A DNA stretch of 64,000 nucleotides, taken from the NCBI GenBank assembly GCA_944386225.1, contig CALXAH010000001.1, positions 108,161 to 172,160 of the forward strand, written 5' to 3'. A model generated the notes under the pieces. It did not search any database. It was not told the DNA's origin and worked only from the letters and a program-made list of their open reading frames with translations. Shown in pieces: positions 1,472 to 44,465 of this stretch (position 1 is its first letter; every line of letters starts with the position of its first letter). The position numbers and the translations under genes are program-made. This DNA comes from an uncultured Gemmiger sp. Its GTDB lineage: Bacteria; Bacillota; Clostridia; Oscillospirales; Ruminococcaceae.

Positions 1472-1972
1472 ATGTTTCAGCAACTGGTAACCATTGTACC
1501 CTGGAACTTTGTCGCGGCCATCTGCAACCTGCTGATCCAGATGTGGCTGATCAAGAAGTTCTTGTTCAAGCCTGTACAGAAGGTGCTGGCCCAGCGCCAG
1601 CAGCTTGCCGATGCCCAGATTGCGGACGCCGAGGCGGCCCGCACCGACGCGGAGGCCATGCGTGCCGACTATGAGCAGCGCCTGGCTGCCGCCAAGGAAG
1701 AGGCGGCCGCCCTGGTTCAGAACGCCACCCGCACCGCCCAGCTGCGCAGCGAGGAGATCCTGCGCCAGGCCCAGGCGGACGCGGTGGAGATCAAGAACAA
1801 GGCGGACGCGGACATCGCCCAGCAGCGCAAGAAGGCCATCAACGAGGTCAAGGACGAGATCGGCGGCATCGCCATGGACATTGCGTCCAAGGTGGTGGAG
1901 CGGGAGATCGACCAGCAGGCCCATCAGGACCTGATCGACGAGTTTATCCGGAATGTGGGTGACGCATCATGA
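1472..1972 (+). CDS. atpF: F0F1 ATP synthase subunit b
   Basis: One N-terminal TM helix, then a long Ala/Glu/Arg-rich coiled coil. AAGGAGG RBS. Position after atpE. Confidence 0.9.
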   Translation: MFQQLVTIVPWNFVAAICNLLIQMWLIKKFLFKPVQKVLAQRQQLADAQIADAEAARTDAEAMRADYEQRLAAAKEEAAALVQNATRTAQLRSEEILRQAQADAVEIKNKADADIAQQRKKAINEVKDEIGGIAMDIASKVVEREIDQQAHQDLIDEFIRNVGDAS

Positions 1973-2508
1973 CCGATGTGGGCAAGATGTACGGCGGCGC
2001 GCTGTTTGAACTGTGCGCCGAAGAAGCCCGGGACGAGGCCGTGCGCGATCAGCTGCGCCAGGTGACCGCCCTTATGCGGGAAAATCCCGACTACGAAAAG
2101 CTGCTGTGCACCCCGAACATCCCCAAAGCGGAGCGCTGCGCCCTGTTGGACGAGGCGCTGCGCGGGCAGGTGGACCCCTACCTGCTGAATTTCCTCAAGA
2201 TCCTGTGCGAGAACGGCACATTGCGGCAGCTGAGCGCCTGCGAGAAGGAGTTCAGCGCCCGGTACAACGCGGCGCGGGGCATTCTGCCCGCCAAGGCCGT
2301 GAGCGCGGTGCCTCTGACCGAGGACGCCGCCGCCCGCCTGAAAGCCAAGCTGGAAAGCCTGACCGGCAAGACCGTGGACCTGAGCTTTGCGGTGGATCCG
2401 GCCTGCCTGGGCGGCATCCGGCTGGAGATGGACGGCGTGCGCTTTGACGGCACGGTGGAGGGCCGCCTGGCCCGGCTGCGGCGCGATCTGGAGAATATCG
2501 TATTGTAA
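1969..2508 (+). CDS. atpH: F0F1 ATP synthase subunit delta (OSCP)
   Basis: 179 aa. Its start overlaps the atpF stop as ATGA. Position between atpF and atpA. Confidence 0.9.
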   Translation: MTDVGKMYGGALFELCAEEARDEAVRDQLRQVTALMRENPDYEKLLCTPNIPKAERCALLDEALRGQVDPYLLNFLKILCENGTLRQLSACEKEFSARYNAARGILPAKAVSAVPLTEDAAARLKAKLESLTGKTVDLSFAVDPACLGGIRLEMDGVRFDGTVEGRLARLRRDLENIVL

Positions 2509-4035
<1,527 letters not shown>

Positions 4036-12931: not shown

Positions 12932-13966
12932 TCAGGCGATATACAGGGGATTGGGCTCCTTGTAGACGTTGCGGCGCTGGTAGGCCACATGGCGGGCCAG
13001 ATAGTCGATCCAGGCCTCATAGGCGGGCTTCTTGATGTGGATGCCATCCGATTGTACGTAATCGGCCTTCATGTTGCCGTTCTCGTCGGCAAAGACCTCG
13101 TCCAGATCAATGAAGTAGCACTCCTTCTCCACCGCGATGCGGGCCAGCTCGTTGTTCACCCGCTCCACCTGCTCGTTGCTCAGCTTGGTGGTCTTGGAGG
13201 GATCCACCGGCGGGACAGACTGGATATAGATCCGCACCCCGGGCAGCAGACGCTCCCGCAGCATGTCGATCATCTTGGCATAGTAGGCCAGGAAGGACTG
13301 CTCTTTCTGTTCGCCGGCGTTCACCAGGGAGTTGGTGCCCAGCAGGATATACACCGCGTCGGGGCTGCTGGCCTCTACCGCATCCAGCACCACCAGCTCC
13401 TCGCCGGTGACCCGGTTTTTCACGGTGGAGCCGTTGACCACCGCATCCGGGCCCATGCTGCGGATTCCCAGGATGGTGGAATGCCCGAACACCGAGGTCT
13501 GGTAGCTTTGCAGGCCCTCGGTGATGCTGTCGCCGATAAAGGTGACGGTGTCAAAGTAGCTGATGTCGATCATCGGCTGGGCAGGCTGGGCGATCATCGG
13601 CCCGTAGGGCGAGGTGACGGTCATATTCAGGGTGGGGGCGGCCACCCGGGTCTGGGTATTCCAGCTCAGATCCCCGGCGCTGACCGTATCCCGCATGGCA
13701 GGCTGTTCGCCGCCCGCCTGGCTGTAATCATGGGTCACGGTGGGGGTGGCGGTGGGCTCGGCAACGGGCTGGCTCTGGTCCGGGTCGGAAACCGCCGGTA
13801 CCGAGGCAGGCTCGTCCCCCTGGGGAAGTATCCCACTCAGCCGCAGGGCACCCCATACGGCAGCGGCGATCAGCACCGCGCCGATCAGCAGCACCATAAA
13901 CCGGCGCAGCCGCCGCTGACGGGCGCGGCGCCGTGTCTTCTGTCGAAATTCCTGATAGGTTGCCAT
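12932..13966 (-). CDS. Membrane-anchored SGNH/GDSL family hydrolase
   Basis: Arg-rich N-terminus plus one TM helix. SGNH block I 'GDSITEG' and block V 'SDGIH'. GAGGAGG lies upstream of the ATG at 13966. Confidence 0.8.
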   Translation of the reverse strand: MATYQEFRQKTRRRARQRRLRRFMVLLIGAVLIAAAVWGALRLSGILPQGDEPASVPAVSDPDQSQPVAEPTATPTVTHDYSQAGGEQPAMRDTVSAGDLSWNTQTRVAAPTLNMTVTSPYGPMIAQPAQPMIDISYFDTVTFIGDSITEGLQSYQTSVFGHSTILGIRSMGPDAVVNGSTVKNRVTGEELVVLDAVEASSPDAVYILLGTNSLVNAGEQKEQSFLAYYAKMIDMLRERLLPGVRIYIQSVPPVDPSKTTKLSNEQVERVNNELARIAVEKECYFIDLDEVFADENGNMKADYVQSDGIHIKKPAYEAWIDYLARHVAYQRRNVYKEPNPLYIA

Positions 13967-14027
13967 AAAGGGCACACCTCCTCACTGGGCGGGCGCAGGA
14001 CCCGCAAAGGTCGGGCGCGGAGAGGGA

Positions 14028-15047
14028 TCAGGCTTCCCCTTCCGGCGCGGCGCTGTCGGCGCCGGTATCGGCGGCAGCGGTAGTTTTGGTTGCATAGGGG
14101 CTGCCGTACAAAAACGGCAGGTCATCGGCATAGGCCACATGGCGGCTGAGATAATCCACCCACTGTTTGTAGCCGGTGCCGTTCAGATGGATGCCGTCGT
14201 TGGCAGCCAGATCGGCGTTCAGGTCGCCGTTTTCATCGGCCAGGAATTCATGCAGATCCAGGTAGTGGCATCCCTGGGCCAGCGCCAGCTGGGCCAGCTG
14301 CTCGTTCACCCGGCGGATCTGCTCGTTGTTCAGGGTGGATACATCCGGCCGCACCGGAGTGATGGACTGGATATACAGTTCCGCGTCGGGCACGGTCTCC
14401 TTGAGCATCTGGATCATCCGCTCGTAGTAGGCCAGGAAGGACTCCTCCTTCTTTTCGTCGGCGCTGACCAGCGAGTTGGTGCCCAGCAGCACGTACACCG
14501 CTTTGGGGTTGGCGGCCGCCACCGCATCCAGGGCGATCTCCTGCACGCCGTCCTCCCTTGTCAGGGTGGTGCGGTTCACGATATCGCTGGGATGGATGCT
14601 GCGGTAGCCGCAGATGGTGGCCACCCCTTTGATCGAGGTGGAATAGGTGTAGAAGCCGGCGGTAACGCTGTCCCCCAGCATGACCACGTTCTGGAAATAC
14701 TCCGGCTTGACCAGGCCGGTCTCCGGCTGGGCGATCCGCTCGGCGTCCAGCTGCACCAGGTTCCAGCTTTCCTGCTGCACCGGCCCGATGGAGGAGAAAC
14801 TGGTGTTCTGCACAAGTTCGGCGCCGGTATTGGGCAGCGGGGCCAGGGCCACGTTGCCGCCCGAGGTGGGCGCACTGCTGTCGGCGGTCTGCCCTTCGGG
14901 GGGCACGATCCAGTTGAGCAGGGCGGTGATCCCCGCGGACAGGGTCAGGATGACCACCGCGGCGCAGAGCAATGCCAGTGTCCGGCGCAGACGCCGGCGT
15001 GCCTGCCGCTGCCGGTGGCGGCGGCGTACGCGTTGATATTCGTCCAT
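14028..15047 (-). CDS. Membrane-anchored SGNH/GDSL family hydrolase, paralog of the downstream gene
   Basis: Same architecture as 12932..13966: 'RRRHRQRQARRRLRR' plus a TM helix, 'GDSVTAG' and 'NDGIH'. GGAAAGGGGGA RBS upstream of the ATG at 15047. Confidence 0.8.
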   Translation of the reverse strand: MDEYQRVRRRHRQRQARRRLRRTLALLCAAVVILTLSAGITALLNWIVPPEGQTADSSAPTSGGNVALAPLPNTGAELVQNTSFSSIGPVQQESWNLVQLDAERIAQPETGLVKPEYFQNVVMLGDSVTAGFYTYSTSIKGVATICGYRSIHPSDIVNRTTLTREDGVQEIALDAVAAANPKAVYVLLGTNSLVSADEKKEESFLAYYERMIQMLKETVPDAELYIQSITPVRPDVSTLNNEQIRRVNEQLAQLALAQGCHYLDLHEFLADENGDLNADLAANDGIHLNGTGYKQWVDYLSRHVAYADDLPFLYGSPYATKTTAAADTGADSAAPEGEA

Positions 15048-15240
15048 TTGCGGGGTCCCCCTTTCCCGGGCGCTTTGTGTTTTATTGTACCACGCCCGGC
15101 CCGGTTTGCCAACCAAAAAAGGGGCGAAATAAAGAAGTTACCAAATGTTCACAATCACAACACGCCCGGCACTTGACGCGGCCGGAACCGCCGCCTATAA
15201 TATACATAGTATTGAATACCACGTAAAAGGAGCTATCAAC

Positions 15241-16203: not shown

Positions 16204-17361
16204 TCAGGCGGCACTGTCGGAGGAAGCGGCGTTCTGCTCGCTTTCAGCCTCCTGGATGGCGCTGTCCACATCGCCCAGGGTACGGCCCGGGTCGATGTTC
16301 TTGCCCAGCGGCCAGTCATAGCCGGTGGGCAGGTTCAGCAGTTCGGCATCCACCGGCATCTCCGGGTCGCGGAAATGCTCGTTGAGCAGCTCGGCCATGG
16401 CGTCCCGGTCGGTGTAGTAGACGCTGGTCGAGGGATAGCTCTCCCGGGGCGGGTCGATGGTGAGCGGGCCGCCCGGGCTGCGCACCACATACACATCCTC
16501 CGGCTCCACCTGCATCATGGTGGCGTACAGGCCCCAGATCTCGGTGATGTCCAGGTCGGTCTTTAAGTAGGGGGCGATGGACCGGCAGGTCTCGTAGTAG
16601 CCCGCCAGGGTGCACTCGTTCAGGAAGTAATCCAGCACCGCCGCATAGAAATACTGCTGGGTTTCCAGCCGCTTGTAATCGCTCTGGGTGTAGTTGCGGT
16701 TGCGCAGGATCAGCTCGGCCGCGTCGCCGCTGACCTTGTGCCGGCCCTGGGGCACCGCCAGCACCTCTTCGCCGGTGTTCTTGTCGACATAGACGATATC
16801 CCAGGGCACGTACATCTCGATGCCGCCCATCACGTCGATCATGGTCTTGAAGGCGTCCATCTCGATATACACATAGTTGTCAATCGGAAGTTTATACAGC
16901 TCGTAAATTTCATTGGCCAAGTTGTTGACCAGATGATCCTGGTCGGGGCCGTTGGCGTAGACCTCGTTGATCTTGCAGAAGTAGCCGGTGATGCCGCCCA
17001 CCATGGTATCGCCGTACCAGGTATCCCGGGGGATCTGCAGCACGTTGACCTTGCGGGTGTCCCGGTCGATCTGCACGTAGAGGATCACGTCGGTCATACC
17101 CTTGCCCTCGGCGTAGGTGCGGCCGGAATCATCCGCGTCGTAGTCAATGCCGAACACCAGCAGGTTGTAGAACCGCTCGCCATTGGCTTCGATGTCCGGG
17201 TCCTGGGTCTGGCTCAGGCTGCCTACCTCGCCGGTGTCGAAGATGGCGGAGATCTGGCTGTACATATATACCGCCACGCCCGCCACCACCAGCACCACCG
17301 CCAGCACCACGCAAGCCAGGATCAGCGGCCAGCGCCGCCGTGTCTTTTTATTCTGTTCCAA
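16204..17361 (-). CDS. LytR-CpsA-Psr (LCP) family cell-wall polymer ligase
   Basis: One N-terminal TM helix. Core LCP motifs 'LVFGIDYD...MTDVILYVQID...VNVLQIPRDT'. I prefer the TTG at 17361, which has GAGGAG 8 nt upstream. The ORF-track ATG at 17478 adds an Arg/Gly-rich, non-coding-looking extension. Confidence 0.82.
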   Translation of the reverse strand: MEQNKKTRRRWPLILACVVLAVVLVVAGVAVYMYSQISAIFDTGEVGSLSQTQDPDIEANGERFYNLLVFGIDYDADDSGRTYAEGKGMTDVILYVQIDRDTRKVNVLQIPRDTWYGDTMVGGITGYFCKINEVYANGPDQDHLVNNLANEIYELYKLPIDNYVYIEMDAFKTMIDVMGGIEMYVPWDIVYVDKNTGEEVLAVPQGRHKVSGDAAELILRNRNYTQSDYKRLETQQYFYAAVLDYFLNECTLAGYYETCRSIAPYLKTDLDITEIWGLYATMMQVEPEDVYVVRSPGGPLTIDPPRESYPSTSVYYTDRDAMAELLNEHFRDPEMPVDAELLNLPTGYDWPLGKNIDPGRTLGDVDSAIQEAESEQNAASSDSAA

Positions 17362-17570
17362 GGTTCTGTCTCCTCGCTTTCCCCGGCGGACCGCAGGGCC
17401 CCGGCCGGTATCCTGTGTACAAGACAAAAGCGGGCCGGGCTCGGAAAAATGCCGAGCCCGGCCTCGGGCAGTATCCATTATACACGAATTTTACGAAATT
17501 GGGAGAGGTTTTCCCGAATTTCGCCCTTTGTAACAAAACGCTTGTAACTATTTTGTAATGTTTTTCAAAA

Positions 17571-20500
17571 TCAACCAACCGTCACCAGGGTGGTGCCCGG
17601 GTAGTAGTGGGCCAGGATCTGGCTGTAGTTCCAGCCCGCCCGGGCGTAGCCGATGGCGCCCCACTGGCTCATACCCACGCCGTGGCCATAGCCCCGCACA
17701 GTAAAGATAAAGGCATCCTGGGAGGCGTCGTACTGCACGGTAAAGGCCGGGCTGCGCATGGTGCGCTTGCGGCCCCAGATATCGGTCTGGCCGCCCAGCA
17801 GGGTGCTTTGCAGGTAGGTGCCGCTCTTGGTGACCGTGCCGATCCGCACCCCCTTGACATAGCCGTAGGTGGTGGTGCTGGTGACCTCCAGCCAGGTGGA
17901 GGGATCACCGGTCAGCTCGATGCCCAGTTTCTCCTTGGCCCGGGCGGCCACGGTGGCGCTGGAATAGACCTCGGTGGTCTCCCAGTTGGTGGCGGTGGTG
18001 GCGTCGTAGGGGCTTTCCACCTCGATCAGGTAGTTGCGCACACCGCCCCACACGTCCACACTGGCGGTTGTACCGCCGGCGCAGCTGGCGTGATAGGGGG
18101 TGAACGCCACGGTGTTGCCGTAAGCCACCACGATGTGGGCCACCTCGGCCACATTGGCCCGCACCGAATCGGTGGGGGCGCGGCCCGCCACCGAGGGATA
18201 GGCGGTGCCCTGGCTCAGGATCCAGCTGTGAGCCGCGATGGCCTGGGCTTTCTGGGCCTCGGCCGGGGCGGAGGAGCCGATCTCATTCATCACGATCATG
18301 GCCAGGCACTCGGTCAGATCCATGGTCTGGGGGGTGCCGTTCATGGTCACGTTGATGGTGGAAGAGGTCACGGGGGGCGCGGTGGGGGCCGGAGTGGTCT
18401 CGCCGCCCTCTGTGCCGCCGGAACTGCCGTCACCCGAATCGGTGGGCGCGGTGGTGGGGGCCGGAGTGGTCACCGGGGGCAGGGTGGCCTCCGGCGGCAG
18501 GCCGGTATCCCCGGTGCCGCCGCCCAGGCCGGTCTCGGTCTCCGGGTTGGGGGTCAGGTTGGGGGTGGGGGTGGGGCCTTCCTCCGGCATCAGGTCTTCC
18601 AGATCCGGCACCTCCCCCAGGCTGTCCAGAATCGCGTCCAGCTGCACCTCTTCTTCGGGCATGCCGGCCTCGATCTGCAGGTCGGCGTTGGTCTGGTTGC
18701 GGCCGCCGAACCAGTTCACCCAGCTCTGCATCAGCTCCAGCATATCCGGCATGGTGGTGCCGCTGGCGCTGTACATGGCGGCGGTGAGCAGCGGGTCGGT
18801 GGTGGGGGCGATGTTGGCGGTATCCACCGAGCGGCTTTCCTGCTCCCGCACCTTGCGGCCCACCACCACCAGCTTGGTGCCGTCCGGCTCGGCCGCGTCG
18901 GCCACCAGGCTGACAAAGCTGTCCCCTTCCTCAAAATCCACCGGCATGTCAAACAGGCTGCGGGCCTTGATCCCCACCACAAAATCCATAAAGGTATTGG
19001 CGTTGCTCAGATCGGTGAAGGCGGCCAGATCAAAGGCGCCCTCCCCTTCCTCGGTGGGATCCCAGTAAAATACAGCCGCCACCTTGTAACGGTAGGCGGC
19101 GGCTTCGGAATTGCCAGTATACAGGGTAAAGGCGCTGTTGTTCTGGACGGCGTCCAGCTGATCCAGGCCGCCCAGCTCCCGCAGGGCCTGCGCGGGGCAG
19201 AGCACCAGGCTGTGGGAGGTGGTCTGCGCCGGGTCAGCCCCCGGGGCGTAACACACCCGCTGGGGGCCGGTGTCCTCCGCGGCCAGTGCCGCCCCGGCGG
19301 GGGCGTCGTCGCGGGGATCGCCGTCGGTGTAGATCAGGCTGCCGGTCATGCCGGGCAGCGCCAGGTAACCGGCCACCTGATCGTCCTTTTCCTGTGCCCG
19401 CTCCAGATAGGAAATGGCGTTGGCATCGAACCCGGCGGTGCCGTAGCTGCGCCAGGCCGGGGCCTCGCCCAGGCTGTTCCAATAGTACAGGCCGGCCGCG
19501 GCGGCCACCGTCACTACCAGCAGGAAGAACACCGCCGCCAGGATGCGGCCCCAGTAGCTGCCCTCCTTTTTGGGGGCGGGGGGTTCGGTATCCGGCACGG
19601 CGCTCTCGTCCACCAGGCCGTACATGGCCTGGGCGGCTTTCTCCAGCCGGGAGTTATGCCCCACCGGTTCCAGCCGCACCACGCCGGTGGGCTCGGAGGG
19701 TTTGGGCGGCGCGGAGGGCGCCTGCCGGGTGGGCTGGGAAACCGCCACGCGGGTGGGCTGCGGGTCGGGTTCGGGGGCCAGCCGCAGCGGCGGTACCCGG
19801 CCGGTATCGCCGGACGCCGCGGGGGCTGCCGCCGGGGCCGCGGGCCGGGCCGGACGGTTTTCCTCCGGGTCGGCCACCAGGGCCGGGGCCTCCTGCCCCA
19901 GCCGGAACATCTGCACACCCTCCGCCTGGGGCTGACCCAGGGCGGCACGGCGGGCCATATCCAGCAGCCACAGCCCCGCCTGAGCGGGGTCGGCCTGGGT
20001 GCGGTTCAGCGCCCTGACCCAGGCGCTGCGCTCGTCCGCCAGCAGTACAAAGGCCGGGTAGCGGCCCTGGGCGGGCTGGAACACCAGCGCGAAATCCGCC
20101 TCCGACACCTTGAGGGCGGCGGCGGCCCGGCCGGCGGCGGGCTGTACCGGGCAGGCAGGCCAGCGGCGCAGCCAGCCGGCAGGGGGTTCGATACGGCCCG
20201 CCTTGCGGGGATGCGCCCAGCTCTCCTGACCAAAATCGTAGGCGCCGCCCGCCTGGGGCAGATCCCGCAGCAGCGGCTCCAGCAGCGCACCGGTGGTTTC
20301 ATCGGCGGCGCAGAACAGGAATTCTTCCTTCAGAAACGCGGCCAGCGCGGCCTGGGGCAGGTCGGTGGCATCGGTGGAGAACACCGCCGGGCCGAACTGC
20401 TCCCGCAGTTTTTTCTCCCAGGTCTCGCAGACCGACGCGGCGTCCGGGCCGGATGCGGCCAGACGCACCGCCAGTTCCCCGTTGCGGCCCATAAGGCGCA

Positions 20501-20606
20501 GGCCGGGGCAGCCCTCGGCGGCGGCCTGCCGCAGCACGGCGGAGGCCCGGGCGGTGGATATGCCGAACAGACGCAGGGTACGGCTTTGGGTAGCGGGTTG
20601 TGCCAT
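17571..20606 (-). CDS. Multidomain membrane protein: CinA-C-terminal-half paralog (degenerate), Pro-rich linker, TM helix, sortase-B-like region lacking the Cys, then a SpoIID/LytB domain
   Basis: The C-terminal motifs 'AIAAHSW', 'YHASCAGGT' and 'GYGHGVGMSQWGA' define SpoIID/LytB. The N-terminus aligns by hand to the neighbouring CinA (see findings). I prefer the ATG at 20606 because of GAGGTGA upstream. Confidence 0.8.
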   Translation of the reverse strand: MAQPATQSRTLRLFGISTARASAVLRQAAAEGCPGLRLMGRNGELAVRLAASGPDAASVCETWEKKLREQFGPAVFSTDATDLPQAALAAFLKEEFLFCAADETTGALLEPLLRDLPQAGGAYDFGQESWAHPRKAGRIEPPAGWLRRWPACPVQPAAGRAAAALKVSEADFALVFQPAQGRYPAFVLLADERSAWVRALNRTQADPAQAGLWLLDMARRAALGQPQAEGVQMFRLGQEAPALVADPEENRPARPAAPAAAPAASGDTGRVPPLRLAPEPDPQPTRVAVSQPTRQAPSAPPKPSEPTGVVRLEPVGHNSRLEKAAQAMYGLVDESAVPDTEPPAPKKEGSYWGRILAAVFFLLVVTVAAAAGLYYWNSLGEAPAWRSYGTAGFDANAISYLERAQEKDDQVAGYLALPGMTGSLIYTDGDPRDDAPAGAALAAEDTGPQRVCYAPGADPAQTTSHSLVLCPAQALRELGGLDQLDAVQNNSAFTLYTGNSEAAAYRYKVAAVFYWDPTEEGEGAFDLAAFTDLSNANTFMDFVVGIKARSLFDMPVDFEEGDSFVSLVADAAEPDGTKLVVVGRKVREQESRSVDTANIAPTTDPLLTAAMYSASGTTMPDMLELMQSWVNWFGGRNQTNADLQIEAGMPEEEVQLDAILDSLGEVPDLEDLMPEEGPTPTPNLTPNPETETGLGGGTGDTGLPPEATLPPVTTPAPTTAPTDSGDGSSGGTEGGETTPAPTAPPVTSSTINVTMNGTPQTMDLTECLAMIVMNEIGSSAPAEAQKAQAIAAHSWILSQGTAYPSVAGRAPTDSVRANVAEVAHIVVAYGNTVAFTPYHASCAGGTTASVDVWGGVRNYLIEVESPYDATTATNWETTEVYSSATVAARAKEKLGIELTGDPSTWLEVTSTTTYGYVKGVRIGTVTKSGTYLQSTLLGGQTDIWGRKRTMRSPAFTVQYDASQDAFIFTVRGYGHGVGMSQWGAIGYARAGWNYSQILAHYYPGTTLVTVG

Positions 20607-20611
20607 GGTGT

Positions 20612-21904
20612 TCACCTCATTTCCTCGGCCAGCCGGGCGGCGGGCACGGTCTGTGTGTCATCGGGCAGGGGCAGGCCCAGCGCCAGACGGCGGGCCAGAT
20701 CCAGCGCGTTCTGGGAGGAGCGCAGCCGCACAACCTCCCGGCTGCGGCCGCCCAGGCCCAGTTTGCGGATGTAAATGGTATCCCGGTACGCGGCGGCCAG
20801 GTATACCAGCCCCACCGGCTTGTCCGGGGTACCGCCGCCGGGGCCGGCCAGGCCGGTCAGCGCCAGGGAAATATCCGCGCCGGACATCCGGCGGGCCCCC
20901 TGGGCCATCCAGGCGGCTGTCTGGGGGGACACCGCCCCGTGGGCCGCCAGCACCTCGCCGGGCACACCCAGCAGTTTCTCCTTGGCCTCGTTGGCGTAGG
21001 TCACAAAGCCGAAGCCGAACACCTCGCTGGCGCCGGGCACATCGGTGATGCGGCGGCTTACCAGCCCGCCGGTGCAGCTTTCGGCGGTGGCCAGGGTCAG
21101 ACGGGCTTTCCGCAGGGCGACCACCGCGGCGGATTCCAGGGTGGCGTCGTCCTCGCCGTAGATGCAGTCGCCCAGAATGTCATAGAACGCCTGCGCCTTG
21201 GCCCGGCACATGGCCGCGGCCTCGGCGGGGGTGGCGGCCTTGGCGGTAATGCGGATGTGGCATTCGCAGGTCTTGGCGTAGATGGCGGCGGTGGGGTTCT
21301 GGCTGCGGAACAGATGGCCCACCGTTTCCTCCAGATGGCTTTCCCCCGGGCCGGTGACCTTCAGGGTCAGGCTGTGCAGCACCCCGCTGCACAGCGGCTG
21401 CAGCAGGGGCAGCACCTGCTCGTTCCACAGGGGGATCAGCTCATGGGGCGGGCCGGGCAGCAGCACCGCGTACCGGCCCTCGTCCTCAAACCAGATGCCG
21501 GGGGCGGTGCCGTTGCGGTTGGGCAGCTTTTTGCCCCGGGTGGGCACCATGGCCTGTTTTTCGTTGTTGTCGGGGGTGGTGCGGCCGCTTTTGGCAAAGA
21601 AGGCGGCGATCTTGTCCATCTCTTCCTGGTCAAAGCGCAGGGTATCGTGGTAGCAGCGGGCCACCGTCTCCTTGGTCAGGTCGTCCGCCGTGGGGCCCAG
21701 CCCTCCGCTGAACACCAGCAGGTCGCTGCGGGCCTTGGCGGTGCGCACCAGTTCTTCCAGGCGGGCGGCGTTGTCCCCCACCACATGCTGGTGCAGCACG
21801 GTGATGCCCAGATCCGCCAGCTGCCGGGCCAGAAATTGCGCGTTGGTATTCAGGATATCCCCCAGCAGCAGCTCGGTGCCTACCGCGATGATCTCCGCTT
21901 CCAT
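20612..21904 (-). CDS. cinA: Competence/damage-inducible protein CinA (MoCF-type domain plus PncC-like nicotinamide-nucleotide amidase domain)
   Basis: 430 aa with 'IIAVGTELLLGDILNTNAQFLA' and 'LATAESCTGGL'. Confidence 0.92.
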   Translation of the reverse strand: MEAEIIAVGTELLLGDILNTNAQFLARQLADLGITVLHQHVVGDNAARLEELVRTAKARSDLLVFSGGLGPTADDLTKETVARCYHDTLRFDQEEMDKIAAFFAKSGRTTPDNNEKQAMVPTRGKKLPNRNGTAPGIWFEDEGRYAVLLPGPPHELIPLWNEQVLPLLQPLCSGVLHSLTLKVTGPGESHLEETVGHLFRSQNPTAAIYAKTCECHIRITAKAATPAEAAAMCRAKAQAFYDILGDCIYGEDDATLESAAVVALRKARLTLATAESCTGGLVSRRITDVPGASEVFGFGFVTYANEAKEKLLGVPGEVLAAHGAVSPQTAAWMAQGARRMSGADISLALTGLAGPGGGTPDKPVGLVYLAAAYRDTIYIRKLGLGGRSREVVRLRSSQNALDLARRLALGLPLPDDTQTVPAARLAEEMR

Positions 21905-42575: not shown

Positions 42576-44465
42576 TCACAGCCCGGTACCGGTCAGTGTG
42601 GTAGAGTTCATGCAGAGACAAAGAGTCACCAACATACCGTTTACGATTCCGCCGATATATGGATTCCGGGTGCGCTTGTAGATTGCCCGTGCAATATAGG
42701 GGGTGATAAACAAGATCAGTACAGCGGTATGGAGCCAGGTCGGAATACGAGCTTCCGCACCGGTACCCCACATCTGGAATCCGGTAGAAACGAACACTGT
42801 GTACTGGATTACAATGAAGATCAGGGGAGCCAGACAGTTCAGCAACCCCAGCACCAACATATTGACCCATTCTTTCTTGCCCAAAGCATTGCTGTATCCC
42901 TGCACATTGATTGCTACGGAATTAGCGACAAAGAACAACAGGAACAGCGGGAGAAATGTAAGGGTCGGAAGGATCTTGGCCGCCGGGAAGGCTTTTGCCG
43001 ACCATTGCCAGAAGCGGAAATCCGTCTGGAAGAAATAATCCGCAAAGAAAACAATGCTCCAGGCGCCCACAATCGTGACAATGGCAATTGCTACCGTTTT
43101 CAGGATATTCTTGCGAGGCAGGATGAGACCAGCTTCCCGGAGATCCACACCACGTTTTTTTGCATAGCCATAGTACCAGGCCGCAACCGTGGCAATGATA
43201 ACCAGTGCATTGAGGGCTGCCCAGCCGGCAATGCAGAAAGTATTCTTTTGCTGCCAGACCGGGTCTATCCGGCTGTACATGGTACTGTGCATAATCTGCC
43301 AGAAGATAAAAGCAGACGCGCCAATCTTGACTGCCGAGGTTCCCAGCGCCCAAATCCGATCTTTTCCATCCGCATTTTGTCGCATCTCCACCGGTCGTTT
43401 CAGACCTTCGAACACCCGTGTGTTCAGTAGCTCAATGGCAAAGGCGGCGAGGAAGATCCAGAATCCGGCCAGGCCCAAAGCTCCAAGTGCCGCCTTCAGC
43501 GGCCAAATCTGCTCATTCGGCGTCAACCTTGTTTGGGTGGGGAAAATCTGCTCCAAGAAAGTAATACCGTCATTGACCACAGCGGTCGATAACCAGCACT
43601 GCGCATGGATCGCGGAGGGATTGTAAATGACCCGTACCGCCTGTCGTTCTCCTACCGTCTGAGTATAGAACTTTCCTTCCTCCACCTTTTCTTCCGAAAA
43701 GGCCTGTGGACCATTTCCAAAGCTCACAAATGCTTTCGCCATCGTTGTGCTTAAATATTCCCGTGTGGCCGTTACTGGCTTGGAGTTCTCCTTGACGGTG
43801 AAGAAGTAGTCATCATACTGCCCTGCGATCAGCGCCACATCCCGGTTTCCATAAATGTTGTTGTAGGTACCGCTGCTGGTCGATACGCCAAAGGTATCGG
43901 TATTGTTCTCGTCCGCCTCCATGATGACCGGATCATATGCAATCAGCAAGCAGGCCTTAATCAGGTTCGTTTCATTTTCATTATCGATCACCACAGCCTT
44001 ACTGCAGGCATTCGCCCCGGCAGAATGGCCGCTGATCACAATCTTGTCCTTGTCCACATACGGCAGGGTGGCAACGTAGGCTGCCGCGTCATACATTCCG
44101 TTGCCTCCATCCCACACAGCCACATTATCCAAGTCTTCGGAATTACCATGGGAATACATATCATAGGTAAAGACGACATACCCGCGCCGGGAATATTCAA
44201 CCGCGAACAGGTCACCGTTTTCTTTGTTATTGTACCATCCGTGCGCATATACCACCACAGGGGCCGGGTTCTCCGCCGTAGCGCTTTTCGGAATAAACAG
44301 CTTGGCACTCATGGTATGCCCTGATATGCTCTCCAACGTGAGGGTCTTCACGGTGACCGTTCCGCCCCCCGACTGAATAAAACTGGTTCCTATCATGCTG
44401 ACGAGCATCATGATCACCGCAATCAACAGGGCGTACCTTGCTTTATCTTTGATTCGTCCAAACAT
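42576..44465 (-). CDS. Fusion of an N-terminally anchored alpha/beta hydrolase with a C-terminal polytopic membrane domain; the gene has markedly low GC
   Basis: 629 aa with 'VVVYAHGW' and nucleophile elbow 'ISGHSAGANA', followed by about 8 TM helices. Its AAGGAGGAG RBS lies in the last codons of larA. Confidence 0.8.
   Translation of the reverse strand: MFGRIKDKARYALLIAVIMMLVSMIGTSFIQSGGGTVTVKTLTLESISGHTMSAKLFIPKSATAENPAPVVVYAHGWYNNKENGDLFAVEYSRRGYVVFTYDMYSHGNSEDLDNVAVWDGGNGMYDAAAYVATLPYVDKDKIVISGHSAGANACSKAVVIDNENETNLIKACLLIAYDPVIMEADENNTDTFGVSTSSGTYNNIYGNRDVALIAGQYDDYFFTVKENSKPVTATREYLSTTMAKAFVSFGNGPQAFSEEKVEEGKFYTQTVGERQAVRVIYNPSAIHAQCWLSTAVVNDGITFLEQIFPTQTRLTPNEQIWPLKAALGALGLAGFWIFLAAFAIELLNTRVFEGLKRPVEMRQNADGKDRIWALGTSAVKIGASAFIFWQIMHSTMYSRIDPVWQQKNTFCIAGWAALNALVIIATVAAWYYGYAKKRGVDLREAGLILPRKNILKTVAIAIVTIVGAWSIVFFADYFFQTDFRFWQWSAKAFPAAKILPTLTFLPLFLLFFVANSVAINVQGYSNALGKKEWVNMLVLGLLNCLAPLIFIVIQYTVFVSTGFQMWGTGAEARIPTWLHTAVLILFITPYIARAIYKRTRNPYIGGIVNGMLVTLCLCMNSTTLTGTGL

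Follow-up and report, generated by a model that had tools for sequence, protein, structure and literature searches.

A gene next to cinA in Gemmiger encodes predicted pseudo-CinA and pseudo-sortase B domains joined to an SpoIID domain

The gene analysed here lies on the minus strand of a 64,000-nucleotide stretch of DNA from an uncultured Gemmiger sp. (contig CALXAH010000001.1, positions 108,161 to 172,160; hereafter, the window), where it directly follows cinA; it is referred to below as the target gene. Its product joins a degenerate copy of the KH and PncC half of CinA, a single transmembrane (TM) helix and a domain predicted to have the fold of a class B sortase without the catalytic His and Cys to an apparently intact SpoIID/LytB domain. 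An original prediction, made from the DNA letters and a list of open reading frames (ORFs), had described this arrangement. The observation was confirmed, with all the motif strings that it quoted present and in the order that it gave, and its interpretation was partly supported and extended. The features of the gene and of its junction with cinA are the following.

17571..20606, minus strand: target gene (pseudo-CinA/TM helix/pseudo-sortase B/SpoIID), 1011 amino acids plus stop, from ATG; ORF list and translation
20612..21904, minus strand: cinA, adjoining the target gene upstream; complete MoCF, KH and PncC, with AESCTGG present
20613..20618, minus strand: GAGGTG Shine-Dalgarno sequence of the target gene, within the last cinA codons and stop; direct sequence reading
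20373..20606, minus strand: degenerate CinA KH-type domain, residues 1-78, GIGES changed to GISTA; profile alignment to 6mr3 from chain residue 177
19887..20372, minus strand: PncC (nicotinamide mononucleotide (NMN) deamidase)-like domain, residues 79-240, with E103 at the Ser nucleophile, no TGxAGP loop and ALDxxRR kept (R219/R220)
19548..19886, minus strand: Pro/Ala-rich cytoplasmic linker, residues 241-353, with the conserved juxtamembrane motif LEKAAQAMYGL; ratio of nonsynonymous to synonymous substitution rates (dN/dS) 0.17-0.45, less constrained than in the domains
19479..19547, minus strand: single TM helix, residues 354-376, the sole Kyte-Doolittle peak, with K/K/R N-terminal to the helix
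18807..19478, minus strand: predicted class B sortase fold, residues 377-600, His loop deleted, D570 at the Cys position, R584 (Arg) kept
18657..18806, minus strand: helical C-terminal extension typical of this sortase subfamily, residues 601-650, PLLxxxxY...W.NW...LQ.EAGMP; alignment and secondary structure of an AlphaFold2 (AF2) model
18363..18656, minus strand: Pro/Thr/Gly-rich extracellular linker, residues 651-748; dN/dS 0.12-0.51
17574..18362, minus strand: SpoIID/LytB lytic transglycosylase domain, residues 749-1011; TIGR02669
18282..18284, minus strand: E775 codon, counterpart of the catalytic Glu; alignment to 5i1t

Direct reading of the junction bears out a start 5 nt past the end of cinA: the cinA stop TGA (20614-20612) is followed by ACACC and then by the target ATG at 20606. 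An alternative GTG start at 20615, three codons 5' of this ATG, overlaps the cinA stop. Since the Shine-Dalgarno sequence lies inside the last cinA codons and the spacing is 5 nt, the two genes are probably translationally coupled. The upstream gene encodes a CinA with the domains MoCF_biosynth, CinA_KH and CinA/PncC, which scored 485.7 bits with the NCBIfam model NF001813.

Two degenerate domains and an SpoIID domain

The proposal that the N-terminus can be aligned with the KH and PncC-like half of CinA was supported by profile, sequence and structure comparisons. NF001813 matched residues 5-175 with its positions 177-351 (E=6.5e-9), and BLASTP aligned the N-terminus with the neighbouring CinA at 25% identity over 197 columns (E=2e-9). 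A profile built from eight family members found the Streptococcus mutans CinA 6mr3 at E=5e-13 and the Agrobacterium tumefaciens CinA 2a9s at 4.6e-6. An AF2 model of the domain, built with 33 sequences (pLDDT 96.1, pTM 0.92), retrieved 6mr3 in Foldseek with E=3.5e-12 and template modelling (TM) scores of 0.69/0.70, and the Thermus thermophilus CinA with E=1e-10. Chance similarity to CinA was ruled out by these matches, and residues 1-240 are assigned by profiles and model to the CinA KH and PncC fold. The COG1058/MoCF ADP-ribose pyrophosphatase domain is absent, the protein beginning at the KH domain. Curated cut-offs were not reached: NF001813 gave 35.3 bits against a cut-off of 379, the KH model PF18146 gave 16.6-19.3 against a gathering score of 27 (E=0.0012-0.008), and the Pfam scan of the target protein returned no PF02464 match.

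The chemistry of this half appears to be gone. In the alignment with genuine CinAs, AESCTGG has become ADETTGA, which puts Glu103 at the position of S31 of A. tumefaciens CinA; within the family this position is occupied by E, K or G. S31 and K63 constitute the PncC catalytic dyad of the A. tumefaciens protein, as supported by mutagenesis (PMC5384747). K136 of the target aligns with K63, and Lys is present there in most family members without being invariant. A ten-residue ITGxAGPGGG segment of the oxyanion loop, which held the conserved T105, G106, A108, G109 and P110 positions, is deleted, and so are six residues near the C-terminal end of the alignment. In the KH domain, the lost residue is the Glu of GIGES; in CinA, this Glu of one chain contacts the ADP-ribose bound in the COG1058 site of its partner (PMC4246079). 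Kept are the ALDxxRR motif, the T-G of ESCTGG and, at the Y58 position, an aromatic residue. Because the Ser nucleophile, the TGxAGP loop and the GIGES Glu have been lost, and with them the known requirements for catalysis, the N-terminal domain is predicted to be catalytically dead, as had been proposed from the ADETTGA motif. Compared with the CinA proteins of T. thermophilus (4ct8/4uux) and S. mutans (6mr3), the target shares the KH and PncC fold, the T-G and ALDxxRR, and it sits beside cinA or, in relatives, in the place of cinA after nifS-thiI; it differs from them in lacking COG1058/MoCF, in the Ser to Glu replacement, in the missing TGxAGP loop and GIGES Glu, and in being tethered to a TM helix.

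The single TM helix of the original prediction corresponds to the only hydrophobic segment of the protein, residues 354-376. Since CinA is cytoplasmic and sortase and SpoIID domains are extracellular, we infer by analogy an orientation with the N-terminus inside and the C-terminus outside. In the otherwise variable, low-complexity linker before the helix, LEKAAQAMYGL (residues ~318-332, about 19611-19655) is conserved throughout the family, with relatives having AAxxLF/Y and then acidic residues. It may serve as a short linear motif for interactions.

For the middle region, a Pfam scan gave no match up to E=10, and neither TIGR03064 nor PF04203 detected a sortase in the target, so that the curated cut-off was failed in Pfam and NCBIfam alike. 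A single-sequence search of the PDB found only the Clostridioides difficile SrtB at E ~0.6. Matches became significant with the eight-member family profile: C. difficile SrtB 4ux7 at E=1.3e-6, Clostridium perfringens SrtB at 7e-5 and Bacillus anthracis SrtB at 2e-3, over a segment that spans the TLxTC and Arg motifs. In agreement with this, the 14 best PDB matches found by Foldseek for an AF2 model built with 39 sequences (pLDDT 86.9, pTM 0.85) were all class B sortases, with E values from 2e-10 to 5.5e-8, TM-scores of 0.60-0.78 to the matched structures and a probability of 1.00. In the target, Asp570 (LVADA) takes the place of the TLxTC Cys, a position at which relatives have T, P, A or S. 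The loop with the His of YGHxM is deleted in the target and its clade. R584, the catalytic Arg, and R549 of the K.RS motif are invariant in the family, and R584 is nearly so across sortase homologues. These data indicate a class B sortase fold without His and Cys, predicted to be non-catalytic, and extend the earlier description of a Cys-less sortase-B-like region by the loss of the His loop. With class B sortases (TIGR03064; 4ux7/5gyj, C. perfringens 5b23 and Staphylococcus aureus 1ng5) the target has in common the fold, the N-terminal membrane anchor, the Arg, the K.RS motif and the order of motifs; it is distinguished from them by the missing His loop and Cys, by the cytoplasmic domain before the anchor and by the SpoIID domain after it.

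The C-terminal domain, in contrast to the other two, passed its curated model: TIGR02669 scored 130.8 bits against a cut-off of 83.3 and was covered from position 5 to 268 of 270. The PDB SpoIID chains 5i1t, 4rwr and 5txu matched at about 1e-19. E775, in the context 'NEI', aligns with the Glu of 'GEM' in C. difficile (E101), and no family member has another residue there. The C-terminal GYGHGxGMSQxGA motif is present as well. Mutation of E101 abolishes the activity of C. difficile SpoIID (PMC6221140). Judged from these sequence features, the SpoIID domain is apparently intact, as had been claimed. The target shares with the sporulation SpoIID proteins of B. anthracis (4rwr) and C. difficile (5i1t/5txu) the complete domain, the catalytic Glu, the membrane anchor and the extracellular location. 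Unlike them, it fails the spore_II_D equivalog model TIGR02870 (107.4 bits against 234.75) and carries ~750 residues of other domains in front, and no turn-beta-turn zinc motif as in C. difficile SpoIID was noted in it. The protein therefore qualifies as an SpoIID/LytB-domain protein and belongs neither to CinA nor to the class B sortases, because the catalytic features that define those two families were tested for and are absent.

Conservation and a wider family of CinA-sortase fusions

A scan of one genome per species yielded 73 related loci, in Gemmiger, Subdoligranulum, Allofournierella, Fournierella and unnamed Oscillospiraceae, the closest being that of Candidatus Gemmiger avium with 95% identity. 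The isolates G. formicilis ATCC 27749, G. gallinarum DSM 109015 and A. massiliensis DSM 100451 are among them. The three regions occur together in 54 loci, and in all 54 they share a single frame uninterrupted by stops, with cinA as a separate ORF just upstream; the order nifS-thiI-cinA-target was found in nearly all loci with enough flanking sequence. Two loci assigned to other taxa, L040 ('Bulleidia sp.') and L066 ('Coriobacteriaceae bacterium'), show this same gene order and Gemmiger-like identities, which suggests mis-binned or mislabelled assemblies. Values of dN/dS between close pairs, calculated according to Nei-Gojobori, were 0.08-0.22 for the pseudo-PncC domain, 0.08-0.15 for the pseudo-sortase and 0.03-0.16 for SpoIID, compared to 0.12-0.51 for the linkers. 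All three domains are under purifying selection; the dead domains are being maintained and are not decaying.

Beyond these loci, a search of 1.84 billion representative proteins with the eight-member profile of the middle domain gave 1174 matches at E<=1e-3. Distant matches carry the full class B consensus (NxDxxGWIxIxGT..YPVVQ..DN.YYL.HDF, YGHxM, TLSTC and RLVVVAR.VR.GE), and 40 of 56 sampled matches passed Pfam Sortase at E<=1e-3; sortases among the matches did so at about 1e-13 to 1e-19. Little was gained from a further homologue search with the middle-domain profile, whose matches were for the most part fragments. Architectures and the His/Cys/Arg (H/C/R) triad were determined in 125 longer proteins among the matches, and the following combinations include CinA domains.

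P0100, P0107, P0112, P0138: complete CinA, TM helix, sortase B with the H/C/R triad
P0086, P0125: complete CinA (P0125: MoCF and PncC), TM helix, sortase B with the triad, SpoIID
P0032, P0038, P0039, P0040, P0043, P0065, P0075, P0081, P0149: complete CinA, TM helix, pseudo-sortase, SpoIID
P0062, P0083: PncC only, TM helix, pseudo-sortase, SpoIID

Domain scans gave MoCF, KH, CinA and Sortase for P0107 and MoCF, CinA, Sortase and SpoIID for P0125. With TIGR03064 (cut-off 153.75), P0107 (194.3) and P0125 (167.5) passed, compared to 72.7 for L070, one of two Oscillospiraceae metagenome-assembled genomes with a pseudo-sortase fusion. There, a complete CinA, a TM helix, a pseudo-sortase and SpoIID are encoded in one ORF (L070, 3433-6780, 1115 amino acids; L073, 1-2925, the whole contig). 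Immediately upstream of the genes for P0125 and P0107 are, in each case, nifS (Aminotran_5) and thiI, so that these genes occupy the position that cinA and the target gene have in the window. The P0107 cluster includes WP_186487047.1 of Neobittarella massiliensis, named only 'competence/damage-inducible protein A'.

When the target is compared with the full fusions of Oscillospiraceae-type Clostridia (for example WP_186487047.1, P0125, P0086 and L070), it is homologous in all shared domains, has the same nifS-thiI locus and belongs to the same sortase subfamily with RxVRxGE...PLYPxxWY, the SpoIID-bearing subgroup sharing ...EAGMP. The full fusions differ in that they have a complete CinA with AESCTGG and, in several cases, the H/C/R triad, whereas the window has a separate cinA and a degenerate tethered copy. 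On sequence grounds, the target stands at the degenerate extreme of a larger family of fusions between a complete CinA, apparently active, and a triad-intact, membrane-anchored sortase B, with or without SpoIID.

The original prediction had stated that no protein of this architecture was known to be described. This stands as far as the searchable papers go, which contained nothing on CinA-sortase or CinA-SpoIID fusions and no description of a catalytically dead sortase domain; the sole remark on fusions in a paper on NMN deamidase classification is that CinA is 'occasionally fused with other domains'. Public records name such proteins 'SpoIID/LytB domain-containing protein' or 'competence/damage-inducible protein A'. 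The target did not turn out to be a one-off, given the 54 loci and the larger family. Each of the three domain families is well known by itself. New within the literature searched are their combination in one protein and the wider family of CinA-sortase fusions, both of which would surprise specialists on CinA and on sortases.

Some features of the relatives may be added. The linker before SpoIID is long, poly-Ser and Asp/Glu-rich in L070 and L073, and in L070 a glycyl-tRNA-synthetase-like ORF (assigned by eye) lies upstream in place of nifS-thiI. In a third locus, L074, ypeB, a spore germination gene (1965-3224), is found two genes upstream of a triad-intact CinA-sortase-SpoIID fusion; its host is probably a spore former. 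Proteins P0047-P0157 include a large triad-intact class B sortase subfamily with the C-terminal extension RxVRxGE...N..PLYPxxWY; many of its members have 100-650 residues before the TM helix, and the sampled Pfam matches include PASTA, zinc-ribbon and Big_2.

Origin, possible function and alternatives

Partial duplication of cinA had been proposed as the source of the N-terminal domain, and the fused CinA-sortase(-SpoIID) genes at the same nifS-thiI position support it. A duplication of the KH-PncC unit is required because both cinA and the target gene contain it, and the target begins exactly at the KH boundary. In a neighbour-joining tree, the N-domains of the target family were monophyletic in 100 out of 100 bootstraps, on a long branch. 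Since the branching order within them matches the order among the adjacent free cinA genes, the duplication is placed by the tree before the clade of the target. In the best tree the N-domain clade stands, with weak support, beside the free cinA genes of its own lineage, which is consistent with the origin outlined next without being decisive.

The simplest path to the gene pair would lead from a fusion gene, through tandem duplication of one part, to fission. First, the KH-PncC segment would have been duplicated in tandem within a fused CinA-TM-sortase(-SpoIID) gene; next, a stop and a start would have arisen between the two copies and split the gene; finally, the upstream copy would have remained an enzyme and the tethered copy would have degenerated. 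As an observation on the free CinA, its C-terminal ~24 residues (window 20612-20690) run past the end of the NF001813 model and align opposite the first linker residues of fused CinA proteins (EFTKSQEADFDR...). This tail may be the remnant of a former fusion.

As to function, SpoIID would be the only catalytic module of the protein, cutting peptidoglycan in its glycan strands on the outer side of the membrane. The pseudo-sortase, in which the fold and the substrate-side Arg are kept, is most likely a binding or positioning module; without catalysis of its own, it could position or gate SpoIID by binding lipid II, a peptide or a partner protein. The pseudo-CinA would be a cytoplasmic dimerisation module of the membrane protein or a dock for the co-expressed free CinA. 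In T. thermophilus CinA, the NMN-deamidase and KH part is related by the 2-fold axis of the dimer (PMC4246079), and stand-alone PncC is a stable dimer (PMC5384747). Because the part kept in the target is this symmetric dimer core, a role as dimeriser or CinA dock seems most likely for it.

Taken together, we consider it rather probable that the target is a bitopic protein co-transcribed with cinA, that the pair arose by fission, that SpoIID is the sole enzyme, and that the pseudo-sortase binds and the pseudo-CinA dimerises or docks. Several points weigh against this. The role of the pseudo-CinA rests only on the analogy with solved CinAs, and the residue at the Cys position of the pseudo-sortase varies (D, T, P or A), pointing to no specific ligand. 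The SpoIID enzymes studied so far need an amidase that strips the glycan first (PMC6221140), and no amidase was identified among the scanned genes of the window (about 6.4-29 kb). In the tree, the sister of the N-domain clade was solely free cinA in 34 out of 100 bootstraps and something else in 60, with the long branch as a further concern. Finally, the association between SpoIID and triad loss was counted over related sequences and not over independent events: with SpoIID (n=36), the full triad was found in 2 proteins and His and Cys were lost in 34, with Arg kept in 31 of these 34, whereas without SpoIID (n=89) the full triad was found in 67 and His and Cys were lost in 22.

Should this reading hold, the protein would be an unusual case of two pseudo-enzymes on opposite sides of the membrane around one enzyme predicted to be live, with both dead domains under purifying selection. 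It would also illustrate clearly how a fusion gene can be duplicated in part and split, with loss of the chemistry in the tethered copy. The hosts, Gemmiger, Subdoligranulum and Fournierella, are abundant gut commensals. We also speculated, more tentatively, that the usual workplace of CinA is the membrane, in association with the machinery for surface anchoring and peptidoglycan remodelling, because complete CinA is recurrently fused to membrane-anchored sortase B, often with SpoIID. The dead half would then dock the free CinA, and the turnover of nucleotides derived from nicotinamide adenine dinucleotide (NMN, ADP-ribose) would be coupled in space or regulation to wall remodelling; we regard this as possible but doubtful. 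For CinA, a widespread enzyme whose biological role is unsettled apart from its two activities, NMN deamidase and ADP-ribose pyrophosphatase, the fusion family offers a testable lead towards the cell envelope.

The alternative that survives best, already raised by the original prediction, is a nucleotide sensor in which the degenerate PncC-like domain binds NMN, nicotinic acid mononucleotide, ADP-ribose or a related metabolite and signals across the membrane to SpoIID. Parts of the PncC site do survive, namely the T-G of ESCTGG, the aromatic residue at the Y58 position and R219/R220 (conserved positions according to PMC5384747), and the domain is under purifying selection; moreover, inactive PncC mutants have been characterised with a view to their possible use for NMN recognition in a biosensor (PMC8231969). 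The losses in the site argue against catalysis and are compatible with ligand binding. Nevertheless, S31 is replaced and the ten-residue loop with T105/G106/A108/G109/P110 is deleted, and a single TM helix between long low-complexity linkers is a poor allosteric conduit. We consider a sensor unlikely.

More improbable still is that the target is the sporulation SpoIID of the organism, acting in forespore engulfment with SpoIIP and SpoIIM and with the extra domains as decoration. The intact SpoIID domain would fit, as would the relative with a fused gene near ypeB, whose host is probably a spore former. Gemmiger and Subdoligranulum, on the other hand, are described as non-spore-forming, and both the architecture and the linkage to cinA are unlike those of canonical spoIID, which was rejected on the failed equivalog cut-off of TIGR02870. 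No spoIIP or spoIIM was identified among the scanned window genes. A literature search on sporulation and morphology in Gemmiger found nothing usable; SpoIID homologues have reportedly been discussed in work on peptidoglycan remodelling at division in Chlamydia, a non-sporulator.

That the sortase-like or CinA-like domains, or both, are still enzymes by means of substitute residues is very improbable. An acidic residue does occupy the Cys position in the target and its closest relatives (LVADA), yet across the family this position varies (D, T, P, A, S), the whole sortase His loop is deleted and the Ser-equivalent of PncC varies as well (E, K, G), so this possibility was rejected for lack of conservation at these positions. 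An assembly or frameshift artefact joining a cinA fragment, a sortase-like gene and spoIID, for which nothing speaks except the unusual length and the low-complexity linkers, has practically no chance of being correct and is refuted by the single frame in 54 out of 54 independent loci, isolate genomes included, and by a G+C content at third codon positions (GC3) of 0.87, usual for genes in the window.

Neighbouring genes

Downstream of the target gene, the library scan and direct inspection gave the following features.

17433..17463, minus strand: terminator-like hairpin with 12 pairs and a T-rich tail, 108 nt past the target stop
12932-13975, 14028-15116 and 16204-17478, minus strand: two tandem SGNH/GDSL hydrolase genes and an LCP (LytR_cpsA_psr) gene; library scan

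The products of the LCP gene and of the first of the two SGNH/GDSL hydrolase genes start with a hydrophobic stretch, and a DegV gene lies on the opposite strand between the LCP and the SGNH/GDSL hydrolase genes. Together with the target gene, these genes look like a cell-envelope neighbourhood. An LCP gene follows the target in a subset of the related loci.

The hairpin after the target extends into the opening codons of the LCP ORF in its longest form (region 17433-17478), and relatives align to this ORF only from about residue 14-72 on. For both reasons, the true LCP start is probably further downstream than that of the longest ORF. Elsewhere in the window, an ORF of 629 amino acids (42576-44465, minus strand) has a GC3 of 0.62 and a G+C content at first codon positions of 0.50, compared to about 0.8-0.9 and 0.6-0.7 in the other window genes, and may have been acquired horizontally.

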